Sequence record: OP177727.1
Reading direction: 5' to 3' (one strand)
Source: Escherichia phage pEC-M2929-1AR.1
Length of the DNA stretch: 64,000 nucleotides
The notes beneath the pieces were generated by a model that worked only from the letters and a program-made list of their open reading frames with translations, was not told the DNA's origin and ran no database searches. The position numbers and the translations under genes are program-made. Below, piece after piece: positions 281 through 3,157 of the stretch; positions within the stretch are counted from its first letter, which is position 1, and each line of letters begins with the position of its first letter.

Positions 281-356
281 TGGTCGTGGTAAACGGAGTC
301 GAACCGTTGTTTCTCGATTATCGGTCGAGTGTACTAACCATCTGTACGATACCACA
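281..356 (-). tRNA. tRNA, anticodon GAU (Ile-type); CCA encoded
   Basis: Hand-folded cloverleaf: acceptor 7 bp, D stem GTAC/GTAC, anticodon stem CTCGA/TCGAG with loop CCGATAA, T arm AACGG-TTCGACT-CCGTT; position 33 is C, which is unusual. Confidence 0.55.
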
Positions 357-361
357 ATAAT

Positions 362-450
362 TGGCAGCAAGGTGAGGAATCGAACCCCTTGATCTATGGT
401 TTGGAGCCATATTGAGTACCATACTCTTTTAAATCTACCCGGCTATGAGT
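362..450 (-). tRNA. tRNA-like element, possible degenerate tRNA (anticodon-like loop CCA)
   Basis: Good anticodon arm (TATGG-CTCCAAA-CCATA) and T loop TTCGATT with CCA end, but no acceptor or D stem could be paired by hand. Confidence 0.3.
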
Positions 451-502
451 TCCTTGAAGTGTCAATGTAACTTAATCATTACACCAGAAGGGAGGTATTT
501 AT

Positions 503-581
503 TGGAGGCGGGAGTTGGATTTGAACCAACGATCTCCAGCATATGAAACTGGCGAGGACGACCAGACTCCTCTATCCCGCA
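503..581 (-). tRNA. tRNA, anticodon CAU (Met, fMet or Ile2 type)
   Basis: Acceptor TGCGGGA/TCCCGCC with 1-72 mismatch, D stem GAGG/CCTC, anticodon arm CCAGT-TTCATAT-GCTGG, T arm GTTGG-TTCAAAT-CCAAC, CCA encoded. Confidence 0.6.
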
Positions 582-596
582 CAATCTGTAATAATT

Positions 597-672
597 TGGT
601 TGATAGTAAGAGAATCGAACTCTTCTCGCAATGCCTTATGAAAGCACTCGAAACGCCAGCTTCACACTATCA
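597..672 (-). tRNA. tRNA, probable anticodon CAU
   Basis: Acceptor TGATAGT/ACTATCA, T arm AAGAG-TTCGATT-CTCTT, anticodon loop TTCATAA; D arm not cleanly resolved by hand. Confidence 0.5.
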
Positions 673-764
673 ATGGCTAACCCTTTATAACCCGTCTTGG
701 CGTGGTATCCTTGATAGGACGGTGGATATCCGTTGCAAACCCTATGATATCTCTTAGATATGGT

Positions 765-844
765 AGCTAAGGTGAGACTCGAACTCACAATCCCCTGGGG
801 CAATACGTTCTAAGCGTATCGTGTATACCATTCCACCACTTAGC
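765..844 (-). tRNA. tRNA-Leu, anticodon UAG (type II, long variable arm)
   Basis: Acceptor GCTAAGT/CCTTAGC, anticodon arm ATACG-CTTAGAA-CGTAT, variable stem CCCC/GGGG, T arm GTGAG-TTCGAGT-CTCAC; CCA not encoded. Confidence 0.6.
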
Positions 845-922
845 CATAATAAGTACACCACTGTAAGAAGCCTCAATGTGCTATTGACAGTTAACCAAGT
901 CTACTCCTTGGATGGTGTTATT

Positions 923-997
923 TGGTGCAGAGAGATGGTAACGATCCATCCTTTCTACCTTTTCAGGGTAGCACTAATCCGTCTCAGCTATCTCTGC
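923..997 (-). tRNA. tRNA-Phe, anticodon GAA
   Basis: Acceptor GCAGAGA/TCTCTGC, anticodon arm CTACC-CTGAAAA-GGTAG, T stem GATGG/CCATC with atypical T loop ATCGTTA. Confidence 0.55.
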
Positions 998-1002
998 AAA
1001 TT

Positions 1003-1078
1003 TGGTCAGTGCGGCAGGACTCGAACCTGCGACCCGAAGCATCCAAAGCTCCCACGCTACCAACTGCGCTACGCACTG
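1003..1078 (-). tRNA. tRNA-Pro, anticodon UGG
   Basis: Acceptor CAGTGCG/CGCACTG, D stem GCGC/GCGT, anticodon arm GGAGC-TTTGGAT-GCTTC, T arm GCAGG-TTCGAGT-CCTGC, CCA encoded. Confidence 0.65.
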
Positions 1079-1085
1079 TAAATAT

Positions 1086-1160
1086 TGGCTGGAGATCTAG
1101 GAATCGAACCTAGTCATCACGACTTCAAAGGCCGTTGCCTTCCCACTAGGCTAATCTCCA
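1086..1160 (-). tRNA. tRNA-Gln, anticodon UUG
   Basis: Acceptor TGGAGAT/ATCTCCA, anticodon arm ACGGC-CTTTGAA-GTCGT, T arm CTAGG-TTCGATT-CCTAG, CCA encoded. Confidence 0.65.
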
Positions 1161-1259
1161 ATAAAACTAAAAATCACTTAAAAAGAACCGCTAGAGTTTG
1201 AAGGAGAAAACCATGAGCGAAAAGAGAAATTTTCTCTAGCGATTCCATTTAAATAATCT

Positions 1260-1333
1260 TGGAGCGAGTAACAGGACTTGAACCTGCACCTGGAGGGTGG
1301 AAACCTCATATGCTACCATTAACACTATACCCG
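1260..1333 (-). tRNA. tRNA-Gly, anticodon UCC
   Basis: Acceptor GCGGGTA/TACTCGC (one G-U), anticodon stem GAGG/CCTC with loop TTTCCAC, T arm GCAGG-TTCAAGT-CCTGT. Confidence 0.6.
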
Positions 1334-1389
1334 CTTAACAATATTACTCTAACATATTATTAGCCCCTTTGTCAAGAGGCTTTTGATAT

Positions 1390-1719
1390 TTATTTTAAAA
1401 TAGTAGATGCACCACGTCTGTTTAGATATGCAATAGTAAAATCCAAATCACCTATTTCTTCAGGTTCCCACTGACCTTCTAAACCATAACAAGAACAATG
1501 ATATGCGTGTACTTCATAAAACAAAGATGTTTTCATATCATAAAAATAAACGTGAGATTCACCTTCATAATATGCACAATCATAAGTGGCAGAAAGAATT
1601 ACAATGTTATCCTTATCTAACTCTACTTCATAATATCTTTCAACATCTTCAATATCATCAAAACCATCGAAAACATTGATATTAAAATATTTCTCTAACT
1701 CTTTTTCTGTCACATACAC
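1390..1719 (-). CDS. hypothetical protein (109 aa) embedded in tRNA cluster
   Basis: ORF track; AAGGAG RBS 5 nt upstream of ATG on minus strand; flanked by tRNA genes. Confidence 0.6.
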   Translation of the reverse strand: MYVTEKELEKYFNINVFDGFDDIEDVERYYEVELDKDNIVILSATYDCAYYEGESHVYFYDMKTSLFYEVHAYHCSCYGLEGQWEPEEIGDLDFTIAYLNRRGASTILK

Positions 1720-1736
1720 TCCTTTAGAGTTAAAAT

Positions 1737-1811
1737 TGGTGCTCCCACAAGGACTCGAACCCTGATAAGTTGCTTACAAGGCAACCGTAATAGCCGTTAT
1801 ACGATAGGAGC
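1737..1811 (-). tRNA. tRNA-Thr, anticodon UGU
   Basis: Acceptor GCTCCTA/TGGGAGC, anticodon arm GTTGC-CTTGTAA-GCAAC, T arm CAGGG-TTCGAGT-CCTTG, CCA encoded. Confidence 0.65.
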
Positions 1812-1890
1812 AAAATATTTGCTTGGTAGGATTTGATACCTACAATTCTAGAAAATTCTAGAGGTTTCTATTAACTCTACAAGCACTATT

Positions 1891-1975
1891 TGGCGATGGA
1901 TCAAGGATTTGAACCTTGCTAGAACTTTCGTTCACGGATTAACAGTCCGTCGCCCAACCACTAGGCCAATCCATC
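1891..1975 (-). tRNA. type II tRNA (long variable arm) with anticodon GUU (Asn-type anticodon on Ser/Leu/Tyr-type body)
   Basis: Acceptor GATGGAT/ATCCATC, anticodon arm ACGGA-CTGTTAA-TCCGT, variable arm stem GAAC/GTTC, T arm CAAGG-TTCAAAT-CCTTG. Confidence 0.5.
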
Positions 1976-1982
1976 TTTAATT

Positions 1983-2070
1983 TGGTGCAGGTAGTTGGAC
2001 TCGAACCAACGAAGCCCCGAAGGGCAGGAGATTTACAGTCTCCAGCAATTGCCGCTATGCGATACCTACG
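1983..2070 (-). tRNA. tRNA-Tyr, anticodon GUA (type II)
   Basis: Acceptor GTAGGTA/TACCTGC, anticodon arm GGAGA-CTGTAAA-TCTCC, long variable arm, T arm GTTGG-TTCGAGT-CCAAC. Confidence 0.65.
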
Positions 2071-2074
2071 TGTT

Positions 2075-2150
2075 TGGTACATCGTGAAGGATTCGAACCT
2101 TCGACCTTGGAGTTAAAAGCCCCTTGCTCTACCAACTAAGCTAACGATGT
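2075..2150 (-). tRNA. tRNA-Lys, anticodon UUU
   Basis: Acceptor ACATCGT/ACGATGT, D stem GCTT/GAGC, anticodon loop CTTTTAA, T arm GAAGG-TTCGAAT-CCTTC. Confidence 0.65.
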
Positions 2151-2284
2151 ATAAATTATCTTTAAAATAGCCAGTGTTTGCGGCACTTGACTATGAAGTA
2201 TTAGGGTATCGGTAAGATGGTGGAGGCCATCTGCCGAAAGTTTACTCTATTAAAGTAAGATTACAAGCTACATTAAAGATAACT

Positions 2285-2370
2285 TGGCGGTAGATGTAGG
2301 ACTTGAACCTACACGCCGTTTCCGACGACAGTTTAGCAAACTGTTGTGGCTACCATTTCACCAATCTACC
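2285..2370 (-). tRNA. tRNA-Ser, anticodon GCU (type II)
   Basis: Acceptor GGTAGAT/ATCTACC, anticodon arm ACAGT-TTGCTAA-ACTGT, long variable arm, T arm GTAGG-TTCAAGT-CCTAC. Confidence 0.65.
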
Positions 2371-2378
2371 GTTCTTAA

Positions 2379-2531
2379 TTATTCAAAACAACCGGAATCT
2401 TTTTGTTCTGCTTTTACCATACGAATATTTTTACCATCTTCAGATTGTTGAAGATTAGAATACTCATAAACAACTTTATTATCTACAATCTTAACTCCGG
2501 TAACAACCTGTCCAATAGTTTTATAATTCAT
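2379..2531 (-). CDS. small hypothetical protein (50 aa)
   Basis: Track ORF 2379-2579 trimmed to internal ATG at 2531 because the upstream part overlaps a tRNA; AGGAG RBS 4 nt upstream of that ATG. Confidence 0.45.
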   Translation of the reverse strand: MNYKTIGQVVTGVKIVDNKVVYEYSNLQQSEDGKNIRMVKAEQKDSGCFE

Positions 2532-2549
2532 AAAGCTCCTAGTTGAATT

Positions 2550-2639
2550 TGGAGGAAGATAATGGAGTCGAACCATCACCGTATCGCTACAATGGGCCAG
2601 GGTTCAAACCTGGTTGCGCACCGCTGCGCCCTACCTTCC
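2550..2639 (-). tRNA. tRNA-Ser, anticodon UGA (type II)
   Basis: Acceptor GGAAGGT/ATCTTCC, anticodon arm CCAGG-TTTGAAC-CCTGG, T arm GATGG-TTCGACT-CCATT, CCA encoded. Confidence 0.55.
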
Positions 2640-2702
2640 CGTTATCATACTTTAAATCTAACATAAAACTATCTTGTTTGTCAAGTAGTTTTTAAAACTT
2701 TT

Positions 2703-2784
2703 TGGTCGGGGTGACAGGATTCGAACCTGCATACTCCAATTACTCGGTTAACGCCTGATTAGAAGTCAGGTGAGATACACCCCG
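2703..2784 (-). tRNA. tRNA, identity unresolved (candidate anticodon loop CTTCTAA = UCU, Arg-type)
   Basis: Acceptor CGGGGTG/CACCCCG and T arm GCAGG-TTCGAAT-CCTGT are clear; the 47-nt interior could not be folded into a canonical D plus anticodon arm by hand. Confidence 0.4.
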
Positions 2785-2856
2785 TTTTCACAGTAACTAT
2801 AACAAAAAACTAAGTGAATGTCAAGATATTTTTACTAAAATTATTATTTAAATTGA

Positions 2857-2962
2857 AGCCTAGTTATGGAATCGAACCATATTTCGTATTTAGTTAGACA
2901 AAGCGGTCTAACATATTTTTCAGGCTTTGATGGCCTCGGAATTACCAAATACCCTACTAGGC
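2857..2962 (-). ncRNA. oversized tRNA-like RNA (about 106 nt)
   Basis: Perfect 7-bp acceptor-like pairing (GCCTAGT/ACTAGGC) and canonical T arm (TATGG-TTCGATT-CCATA) enclose a 74-nt interior containing hairpin GTTAGAC-CGCTTTG-GTCTAAC. Confidence 0.35.
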
Positions 2963-2964
2963 GT

Positions 2965-3050
2965 TGGTGCAAGTGGAGGGATTCGAACCCTCAATCATTT
3001 AAGCGTTGCGTTTTAAGCACAATGTGTATCACCAATTCCACCACACTTGC
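2965..3050 (-). tRNA. tRNA-Leu, anticodon UAA (type II)
   Basis: Acceptor GCAAGTG/CACTTGC, anticodon arm TTGTG-CTTAAAA-CGCAA, long variable arm, T arm GAGGG-TTCGAAT-CCCTC. Confidence 0.6.
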
Positions 3051-3081
3051 ATATAGGAGATGCATAGCATCTCCTTTTAAA

Positions 3082-3157
3082 TGGTGGTTCCCCAGGGTTA
3101 CAATCCCTGCCCTCGACACTTATGAGGTGTGCGCTCTCGTCAGTGAGCTATGGAACC
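3082..3157 (-). tRNA. tRNA, anticodon CAU (Met-type)
   Basis: Acceptor GGTTCCA/GGGAACC, D arm GCTC-ACTGACGA-GAGC, anticodon loop CTCATAA, T stem CAGGG/CCCTG with atypical loop ATTGTAA. Confidence 0.5.

Follow-up and report, generated by a model that had tools for sequence, protein, structure and literature searches.

Textbook rules restrict long variable arms to the tRNAs for leucine (Leu), serine (Ser), bacterial tyrosine (Tyr), and selenocysteine (Sec). Here we describe an 85-nucleotide (nt) tRNA gene that combines such an arm with the GUU anticodon of asparagine (Asn). It is located at positions 1891–1975, on the minus strand, of a 64,000-nt stretch of Escherichia phage pEC-M2929-1AR.1 (sequence record OP177727.1; this whole stretch is called the window below), with exact coordinates and the sequence GAUGGAUUGGCCUAGUGGUUGGGCGACGGACUGUUAAUCCGUGAACGAAAGUUCUAGCAAGGUUCAAAUCCUUGAUCCAUCGCCA. 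Taken as a whole, the gene is probably best explained as a functional phage tRNA-Asn that is charged with Asn and carries an arm maintained by selection.

The identity of E. coli tRNA-Asn resides in the three anticodon bases and G73, and can be transplanted into the body of tRNA-Lys (PMC9976931). The phage tRNA shares with E. coli asnT the GUU anticodon, the CUGUUAA loop, 16 of the 17 anticodon-arm bases, G73, CCA, and the identity set of asparaginyl-tRNA synthetase (AsnRS) (PMC9976931). The two differ in that asnT has a 5-nt variable loop, a D stem of 4 base pairs (bp), and the acceptor pairs U1:A72, C2:G71, and C3:G70; their counterparts in the phage tRNA are a variable arm of 15 nt, a D stem of 3 bp, and the pairs G1:C72, A2:U71, and U3:A70. 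With the class II (type II, long-arm) tRNAs for Ser, Leu, bacterial Tyr, and Sec it shares a helical variable arm with a tetraloop, as well as the common U8-G9 and 3-bp D stem, and the three nt that separate the arm from the T stem recall the spacer of tRNA-Tyr. In contrast to these tRNAs, its anticodon and discriminator are those of Asn, neither the Ser acceptor signature nor the A73 of Tyr and Leu is present, and the body without the arm is no nearer to Ser, Leu, or Tyr than to type I (short-loop) Asn or cysteine (Cys) tRNAs.

Three further systems contain tRNAs of unusual shape. The nematode nev-tRNAs likewise bear an arm together with an anticodon outside the Leu/Ser set, but they derive from tRNA-Leu, keep its determinants, and are charged with Leu (PMC3333845); the determinants of the window tRNA match its Asn anticodon, and its body shows no Leu or Ser ancestry. 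The allo-tRNAs are also noncanonical and long-armed, with anticodons for many amino acids, and some are found in phages (PMC5389517); they have, however, 8/4 or 9/3 acceptor/T helices and Ser or Ala identity, while the helices of the window tRNA are 7/5. Finally, the tRNA array units of mycobacteria and other mobile elements (PMC12803027) provide a common setting, as type II tRNA-Asn is found inside arrays of Mycobacterium, Micromonospora, and planctomycetes. The paper on the M. avium array describes tRNAs that differ in their D, anticodon, and variable arms, and mentions neither tRNA-Asn nor an added arm (PMC12803027).

The last comparison is with phage tRNAs that replace host tRNAs destroyed by defence nucleases. 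The AriB nuclease of PARIS cleaves E. coli tRNA-Asn(GUU) at 40|41, in the sequence context U36AAUC|N41, although Asn is only a secondary target of the enzyme (PMC12409363). P2-OLD, which has tRNA-Asn among its substrates, cleaves paired CNG motifs 3′ of C28 and of C40 (PMC12445682), and PtuAB of retron Eco7 targets tRNA-Tyr (PMC11555353). The resistant spares described are the T5 tRNA-Lys, -Thr, and -Asn against PARIS, a phage tRNA-Thr against P2-OLD, and a phage tRNA-Tyr against retron Eco7 (PMC12409363, PMC12445682, PMC11555353, PMC10264068). Like them, the window tRNA is a phage copy of a defence-targeted host tRNA, with the same anticodon, and it stands in a Lys-Tyr-Asn-Thr run. The spares escape by substitutions in the anticodon stem or loop, whereas the window tRNA-Asn keeps the host sequence there and adds an arm. 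Its parts are as follows.

1891–1975, minus strand: the whole type II tRNA-Asn(GUU) gene, CCA encoded (ARAGORN, Rfam RF00005, and the minimum-free-energy fold; identical to the gene of phage phi92, which is annotated as tRNA-Asn with anticodon GTT).
1969–1975, minus strand: 5′ strand of the acceptor stem, GAUGGAU, with G1:C72, A2:U71, and U3:A70 (ARAGORN; 7 of 7 acceptor pairs covary in relatives).
1952–1966, minus strand: D arm, GCC-UAGUGGUUG-GGC, with C11:G24 and with G18 G19 present (ARAGORN and an alignment of 24 members).
1934–1950, minus strand: anticodon arm, ACGGA-CUGUUAA-UCCGU (comparison with E. coli asnT).
1941–1943, minus strand: anticodon GUU, reading AAC/AAU (ARAGORN and Rfam).
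1919–1933, minus strand: variable arm, GAAC-GAAA-GUUC followed by UAG, its stem starting directly after N43 and three unpaired nt preceding the T stem (Rfam, free-energy fold, ARAGORN, and covariation).
1902–1918, minus strand: T arm, CAAGG-UUCAAAU-CCUUG (Rfam, ARAGORN, and pair counts).
1895–1901, minus strand: 3′ strand of the acceptor stem, AUCCAUC (ARAGORN and pair counts).
1891–1894, minus strand: discriminator G73 (1894) and encoded CCA (1891–1893) (sequence and ARAGORN).

ARAGORN calls a tRNA-Asn (gtt) of 85 nt at 1891–1975 on the minus strand, with the anticodon at position 33, and draws an acceptor stem of 7 bp, a D stem of 3 bp, anticodon and T stems of 5 bp each, and a variable arm. 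This arm comprises 15 nt, namely a 4-bp stem (GAAC/GUUC), a GAAA loop, and the three unpaired nt UAG. The score against RF00005 is 56.5 bits (E = 1.3e-10), well over the gathering score of 29, and U8, A14, G18 G19, U33, a purine at 37, and the T loop are all in place; the alignment to this model contains a 12-nt insertion in the variable region and gives the loop as CUGUUAA. The minimum-free-energy fold is the same cloverleaf with an extra hairpin (−29.5 kcal/mol, z = −2.57). An alternative anticodon register is favored by none of ARAGORN, RF00005, and free-energy folding. With a base-paired stem-loop in a variable region of at least 10 nt, the gene has the defining property of class II tRNAs, while it departs from the short variable loop of canonical tRNA-Asn, which measures 4–5 nt in 32 of the 33 type I Asn genes of the same data. 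A genuine type II cloverleaf tRNA with a GUU anticodon is thus confirmed. A first-pass annotation, made from the sequence alone, had proposed the stem-containing long arm and the 7-nt loop giving GUU; both are returned, in the same register, by ARAGORN, Rfam, and free-energy folding, so that the misfold which that annotation had allowed for is refuted, also by the covariation described next.

The 85-nt gene is at least 99% identical in 52 phage records, and 100% identical in phages whose surrounding 801 nt are 93–98% identical. Such a near-invariant gene amid diverged flanks points to purifying selection. Covariation was counted in an alignment of 24 diverse type II tRNA-Asn members, where the five-helix structure is paired in 98.9% of cells, as compared to 68% in shuffles and 35–48% with slid partners. 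For the variable stem alone the value is 97.7%, with two-sided changes at three of the four pairs. One of them occurs as A:U 14 times, U:A 7 times, C:G twice, and G:C once; another as G:C 12, C:G 8, U:A 2, A:U 1, and U:G 1. The first pair, directly after N43, is G:C in 24 of 24 members, and an A one position before N48, the penultimate nt of the arm region, is equally invariant (24/24). The pair N15:N48 is A:U in 10 and G:C in 4 of the 24, a pattern suggesting that the last nt of the arm region probably serves as an ordinary N48. In the relatives from phAPEC8, PVP-SE1, and Lindwurm the stem reads GUUC/GAAC, GAGU/ACUC, and GUC/GAC, respectively, in place of the GAAC/GUUC of the window, and all are capped by GAAA; the loops of the family are mostly of the GNRA type. 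The long variable arm is a real, selected helix and not a chance fold.

For the amino acid identity, 117 listed type II Asn members were compared with the Ser, Tyr, Leu, and type I Asn tRNAs of the same loci (loci fetched for comparison are cited below by their L numbers). The complete AsnRS set, G34, U35, U36, and G73, is present in the window tRNA. Among the listed members the anticodon loop is CUGUUAA in 109 and UUGUUAA in 8, and G73 is found in 104 of 117 (89%), while A73 occupies this position in 57/60 Tyr and 76/78 Leu tRNAs. The comparison of Asn and Ser identity elements that the first-pass annotation had called for thus returns the full Asn set (GUU and G73), and the Ser pairs G2:C71 and A3:U70 are absent. 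In 43 of the 52 loci with at least 15 tRNAs, no GUU tRNA other than the type II gene is present, and several arrays with Ser and Tyr tRNAs already in place reach a 20-isotype set through it.

The same site in T5-like phages is occupied by a 78-nt type I tRNA-Asn in T5 (L005 8953–9030) and by an 83-nt type II tRNA-Asn in Lindwurm (L004 3495–3577). The downstream flank (rna3, an open reading frame (ORF), and tRNA-Asp) is near-identical in the two, and the upstream side is rearranged in T5. This swap suggests that the two types are functionally interchangeable. It can be mentioned here that an extra T5 ORF (T5.069) overlaps the 5′ end of the T5 tRNA-Asn, and that a small protein annotated as "tRNA amidotransferase" is encoded near the T5 tRNA region (T5.081, L005 16618–17052). 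When the arm is removed and the anticodon masked, the bodies of type II Asn tRNAs are closest to each other and then to type I Asn. We have also considered a descent from Ser, Tyr, or Leu tRNAs, but the nearest bodies outside the family are scattered over type I Asn (25), Cys (20), Leu (15), Ser (13), and Tyr (8).

On the strength of these sequence features, charging with Asn by the host AsnRS, followed by reading of AAY codons, is most likely. The tRNA would probably be transcribed within the minus-strand array and processed like its neighbors, the host AsnRS would most likely recognize it through G34-U35-U36 and G73, and the charged product would then decode AAC and AAU, which this AT-rich phage uses heavily. 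In the long ORFs of the window, which has 37% GC, Asn codons amount to 50 per 1000 and AAT to 32.5 per 1000. AAA, TAT, and ACA are heavily used as well, and together with AAY they match the adjacent Lys(UUU), Tyr(GUA), Asn(GUU), and Thr(UGU) genes. Codon supply is a sufficient reason for carrying a tRNA-Asn, yet it does not explain the arm.

Homologues with a long arm and a GUU anticodon are present in phAPEC8, PVP-SE1, and the T5-like phage Lindwurm. BLAST finds 154 phage records with the window copy and 695 with the T5-like copy, the latter including many Tequintavirus relatives, T4-like Klebsiella and Enterobacter phages (CC31 and PKO111), and Serratia phage CHI14. A scan of IMG/VR with the pattern TGTTAANCCG-N13-24-GGTTCRANTCC, together with the other fetched loci, yields at least 117 unique GUU tRNAs with a variable region of at least 10 nt. 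With the gap widened to admit short loops, 20 of the 120 IMG/VR matches listed are long-arm genes, or about 17% of the viral tRNA-Asn with this anticodon stem. Among the listed matches of the same pattern to 185,579 bacterial and archaeal species genomes there are 29 long-arm tRNA-Asn genes. Eighteen of these belong to arrays that comprise 7 to 36 tRNA genes, in Mycobacterium, Micromonospora, planctomycetes, and other taxa, and 11 are the only tRNA in their locus. A widespread chromosomal occurrence was considered and rejected, since most of the listed genome matches are not tRNAs according to ARAGORN or Rfam; a blastn search of 5,426 complete E. coli genomes finds no similar sequence. The family, of which the first-pass annotation had no knowledge, is large and rarely found outside phages and mobile arrays of tRNA genes. 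Type I and type II Asn genes are found together in 16 of 145 loci, and the approximately 2.5-fold enrichment of Tyr and Asp as neighbors of type II Asn is suggestive only.

The same data contain other tRNAs of unexpected type. The mirror image of long-arm Asn is seen in 60 of 138 unique tRNA-Leu genes, which have a short variable region and a type I look (loci L001–L245, e.g., L004 1698–1774). A further 47 unique tRNAs of short-loop isotypes (Lys, Asp, Cys, Trp, Glu, Ile, Met, Thr, Pro, and others) bear a hairpin variable arm (loci L006–L245), and the base at position 73 is in most cases the one expected from the anticodon (Cys U73, Asp G73, Trp G73, Lys A73). An 86-nt gene of PVP-SE1 annotated as "tRNA-Lys" (L003 3348–3433) has an intact UCCGA-CUUUUAA-UCGGA arm and extra sequence between the D and anticodon arms, and ARAGORN reports for it an undetermined 4-base anticodon. 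Bacterial genomes also contain repeats that resemble the 3′ half of tRNA-Asn, from the anticodon loop to the T arm, and that are not tRNAs by ARAGORN or Rfam (L134 3874–3910 and 4198–4234; L133, L139, L145, and others). Some of these stand 60–400 nt downstream of genuine type I tRNA-Asn genes in Verrucomicrobia, and one other is multi-copy in Pseudomonas, Denitrificimonas, and Thiopseudomonas.

The arm can be considered in the light of the defence nucleases, as the Lys-Tyr-Asn-Thr run mirrors their known target set. In two of the phage tRNAs of this run the anticodon stem has lost the cleavage motifs: the Lys stem is AGGGG/CUCCA, as compared to GUUGA/UCAAU in E. coli, and the Thr stem is GUUGC/GCAAC, as compared to ACUGA/UCAGU. 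The Asn stem, ACGGA/UCCGU against GCGGA/UCCGU in E. coli, retains all of them (U36AAUCC41, C28GG, C40CG, and A37), and positions 28–43 are identical to asnT, so that, unlike in the resistant spares, the cut site itself is unchanged. The differences from the host tRNA lie mainly in the body, where the additional helix starts at position 44, 3 nt 3′ of the 40|41 cut. In the AlphaFold 3 model of the PARIS paper, the AriB dimer spans the tRNA from C40-A41 to U16-U17 of the D loop (PMC12409363). On the basis of this model, an arm lying in between could plausibly have a steric effect. Two type I tRNA-Asn genes of enterobacterial phages are changed at position 39, to A39 in Kuttervirus SJ3 and to G39 in T5, where U30 and U40 are also mismatched; this would fit a change of the stem in place of an arm.

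The explanation of the arm that we favor, although tentatively and at rather less than an even chance, is that it remodels the shape of the tRNA against tRNA-directed defences. The arm would reshape the body beside the 3′ strand of the anticodon stem, while the anticodon arm would stay identical to that of the host, as is presumably favored by AsnRS, by the enzymes of the Q34 and t6A37 modifications, and by decoding. The phage copy might then stay usable while AriB or P2-OLD-type Toprim enzymes act. The narrower proposal that the arm is a dedicated anti-defence device, in which the helix 3 nt from the AriB/OLD cut site makes the tRNA a poor nuclease substrate, is possible but doubtful. We lean to a conflict-related role because the family is restricted to phages and mobile arrays, details at the base of the arm are conserved, and a minority of loci contain both types, none of which is decisive. 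As explanations of the arm, remodeling ranks first, followed by a tolerated scaffold, a decoy, and mischarging, in this order.

Several points weigh against an Asn-charged tRNA with a protective arm. The T5-like type II members have G1:C72 together with G2:C71, and a long arm with G73 is partly Ser-like (PMC9976931). Class IIb synthetases approach the tRNA from the variable-loop side, and the arm could hinder AsnRS. The kept AriB and OLD motifs could simply mean that the tRNA is unprotected. A strict rule by which either the stem is mutated or an arm is added does not hold, as the type II copy of PVP-SE1 has G39, and the sample is too small. The PARIS rescue by T5 tRNA-Asn cannot be taken as functional proof, because the T5 gene is of type I, 78 nt long, and has a different anticodon stem. 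Moreover, the scan patterns fix CCG at 40–42 and the T loop, and the samples obtained with them are therefore biased and do not represent a census.

Phage Bas34 was considered as a natural test, as it has a type II copy and T5 tRNA-Asn is nevertheless needed, but it turned out to be uninformative, since the 3′ acceptor strand of its copy cannot pair. Bas34 is phage SelmaRatti, and in its type II tRNA-Asn (L349 601–683) ACCCGCU faces GGGUCGU, which is unpairable, and ARAGORN makes no call. The gene is probably dead, which would explain the need for T5 tRNA-Asn in the PARIS study.

The strongest competitor is a tolerated scaffold. The gene would then be an ordinary working tRNA-Asn with an arm of no particular use, derived from a single recruitment of a type II body or from an inserted hairpin. 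As AsnRS reads nothing but the anticodon and G73, the arm would have been tolerated, would have been incorporated into the fold, and would have spread horizontally with the arrays. It is consistent with the independence of Asn identity from the tRNA body (PMC9976931), with the mutual closeness of the type II Asn bodies, which point to no parent isotype, with the interchange of the two types at the T5-like locus, and with the occasional presence of arm-bearing tRNAs of many other isotypes in the same arrays. Against it, conservation among widely diverged members extends to fine details such as the first G:C pair, the A preceding N48, and loops that are mostly GNRA. The near restriction of the family to phages and mobile arrays, its very large size for Asn alone, and the loci that hold type I and type II Asn side by side also speak against such a scaffold, which we consider unlikely, if still a serious competitor.

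Far less probable is that the tRNA is a decoy or competitive inhibitor, the host-identical anticodon arm titrating AriB or OLD with little role in translation. The first-pass annotation had raised a decoy for a host anticodon nuclease as one possibility, and the nuclease link stands as a hypothesis: host tRNA-Asn is a known target of AriB and P2-OLD, and the phage copy, with its sites kept, may be a shielded tRNA, a decoy, or one with no protection. The match to asnT at 16 of 17 anticodon-arm positions, with all known cleavage motifs kept, would fit a decoy, and competition by overexpressed viral tRNAs was raised as a possibility in the PARIS paper (PMC12409363). On the other hand, everything that translation requires is intact (G73, the CCA in the gene, the T loop, G18 G19, and N15:N48), full arrays have the type II gene in their Asn slot, and the heavy use of AAY represents a direct translational need. 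In addition, Asn is merely a secondary target of AriB (PMC12409363).

The recoding or mischarging tRNA that was also suggested in the first pass is not supported, and we regard it as even more improbable than the decoy. In this scenario, seryl-tRNA synthetase, attracted by the long arm and G73, or tyrosyl-tRNA synthetase, attracted by the long arm and G34 U35, would insert Ser or Tyr at Asn codons. Ser identity indeed rests mainly on the variable arm and ignores the anticodon, a change from A73 to G73 switches Leu to Ser identity (PMC9976931), the nematode nev-tRNAs that place Leu at Gly and Ile codons are a precedent (PMC3333845), and G1:C72, C11:G24, and G73 are all present in the window tRNA. 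The Ser pairs at 2:71 and 3:70 are nevertheless missing. The G2:C71 pair that accompanies G1:C72 in the Ser rule (PMC9976931) and is found in 79/84 Ser tRNAs (94%) is replaced by A2:U71, and A3:U70, found in 72/84 (86%), is replaced by U3:A70. U1:A72, an Asn hallmark, occurs in 59% of the listed type II Asn members and in 61% of type I Asn, but in 0/84 Ser. The arm is long as in Ser, but its geometry may be less Ser-like: three to four unpaired nt follow the arm in type II Asn, as compared to about one in Ser, two in Leu, and three in Tyr, and the window arm has 4 bp and three unpaired 3′ nt, whereas the commonest parsed Ser arms have 5–7 bp and one. Charging with Tyr is disfavored by the presence of G73 and GUU where bacterial tRNA-Tyr has the required A73 and GUA. 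Furthermore, most large arrays are already supplied with Ser and Tyr tRNAs and have no Asn tRNA other than the type II gene, and with 5% of the phage codons being Asn, mischarging would cause pervasive mistranslation, yet the gene is conserved in hundreds of phages.

An artefact, i.e., a type I tRNA-Asn, a pseudogene, or another anticodon register, can practically be dismissed, as three independent methods agree, the five helices all covary, and the gene is perfectly conserved in 52 records, while no support for it was found, the nearest case being the Bas34 copy with its broken acceptor stem, in a different phage.

A full-text search of the literature brought up no account of a long-arm tRNA-Asn, the older T5 work in subscription journals being outside its reach. 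Many GenBank phage records already list the gene as tRNA-Asn and, as far as we could find, it is the long-arm class that is newly described. A large, covarying family of phage and mobile-element tRNA-Asn with long arms, in which the Asn marks are kept, appears to break the textbook rule. If AsnRS charges these tRNAs, a class IIb synthetase tolerates a full extra helix, with consequences for identity rules and tRNA engineering. Should the arm block defence nucleases, shape remodeling would be a new mechanism for anti-defence spare tRNAs and would help to explain the odd-looking tRNAs of mobile arrays. Reshaping the tRNA rather than mutating the site would then be a general, unrecognized strategy in thousands of phages and mobile arrays, used mainly for Asn and occasionally for Lys, Asp, Cys, Trp, and other isotypes. 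Isotype callers and annotators of phage genomes should in any event expect type II tRNA-Asn.

The region of the gene shares 99.8% identity with Escherichia phage vB_EcoM_AMO3598 and about 98% with phi92 (Justusliebigvirus, Stephanstirmvirinae). Records named "Campylobacter phage" (MG065639, MG065645, MG065656, and MG065689) are 98% identical over the tRNA region; their host labels are probably wrong, or the samples contaminated. ARAGORN finds 16 tRNA genes, tRNA-Asn among them, in a minus-strand array at 281–3157. The spacers between Lys, Tyr, and Asn are 5–7 nt, tRNA-Asn being located 7 nt downstream of tRNA-Tyr. The features around it are the following.

1737–2150, minus strand: the run of Lys(UUU) at 2075–2150, Tyr(GUA) at 1983–2069, Asn(GUU) at 1891–1975, and Thr(UGU) at 1737–1811 (ARAGORN).
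2655–2684, minus strand: a promoter-like site, TTGACA-18-TAGATT with TG, upstream of the Ser-Ser-Lys-Tyr-Asn-Thr run (consensus match only).

A tRNA-like gene at 2703–2784 on the minus strand, missed by ARAGORN and scored at 40 bits by Rfam, has a 7-bp acceptor stem, a 7-nt linker in place of the D arm, the loop CUUCUAA (UCU, Arg), a variable region of about 20 nt with a small hairpin, a normal T arm, A73, and an encoded CCA. At 503–581, also on the minus strand, there is a 79-nt tRNA-Met(cat) with the anticodon at position 37, the phAPEC8 homologue of which is annotated as tRNA-Pseudo-CAT, and a weak tRNA-like match of 22.9 bits, below threshold, is found at 365–425 on the same strand. The tRNA-Lys of phi92 (L001 3326–3401) differs from that at 2075–2150 of the window by one anticodon-stem base, and ARAGORN assigns to it a 6-nt loop and "anticodon (tt)", while the window copy is a normal Lys(UUU).

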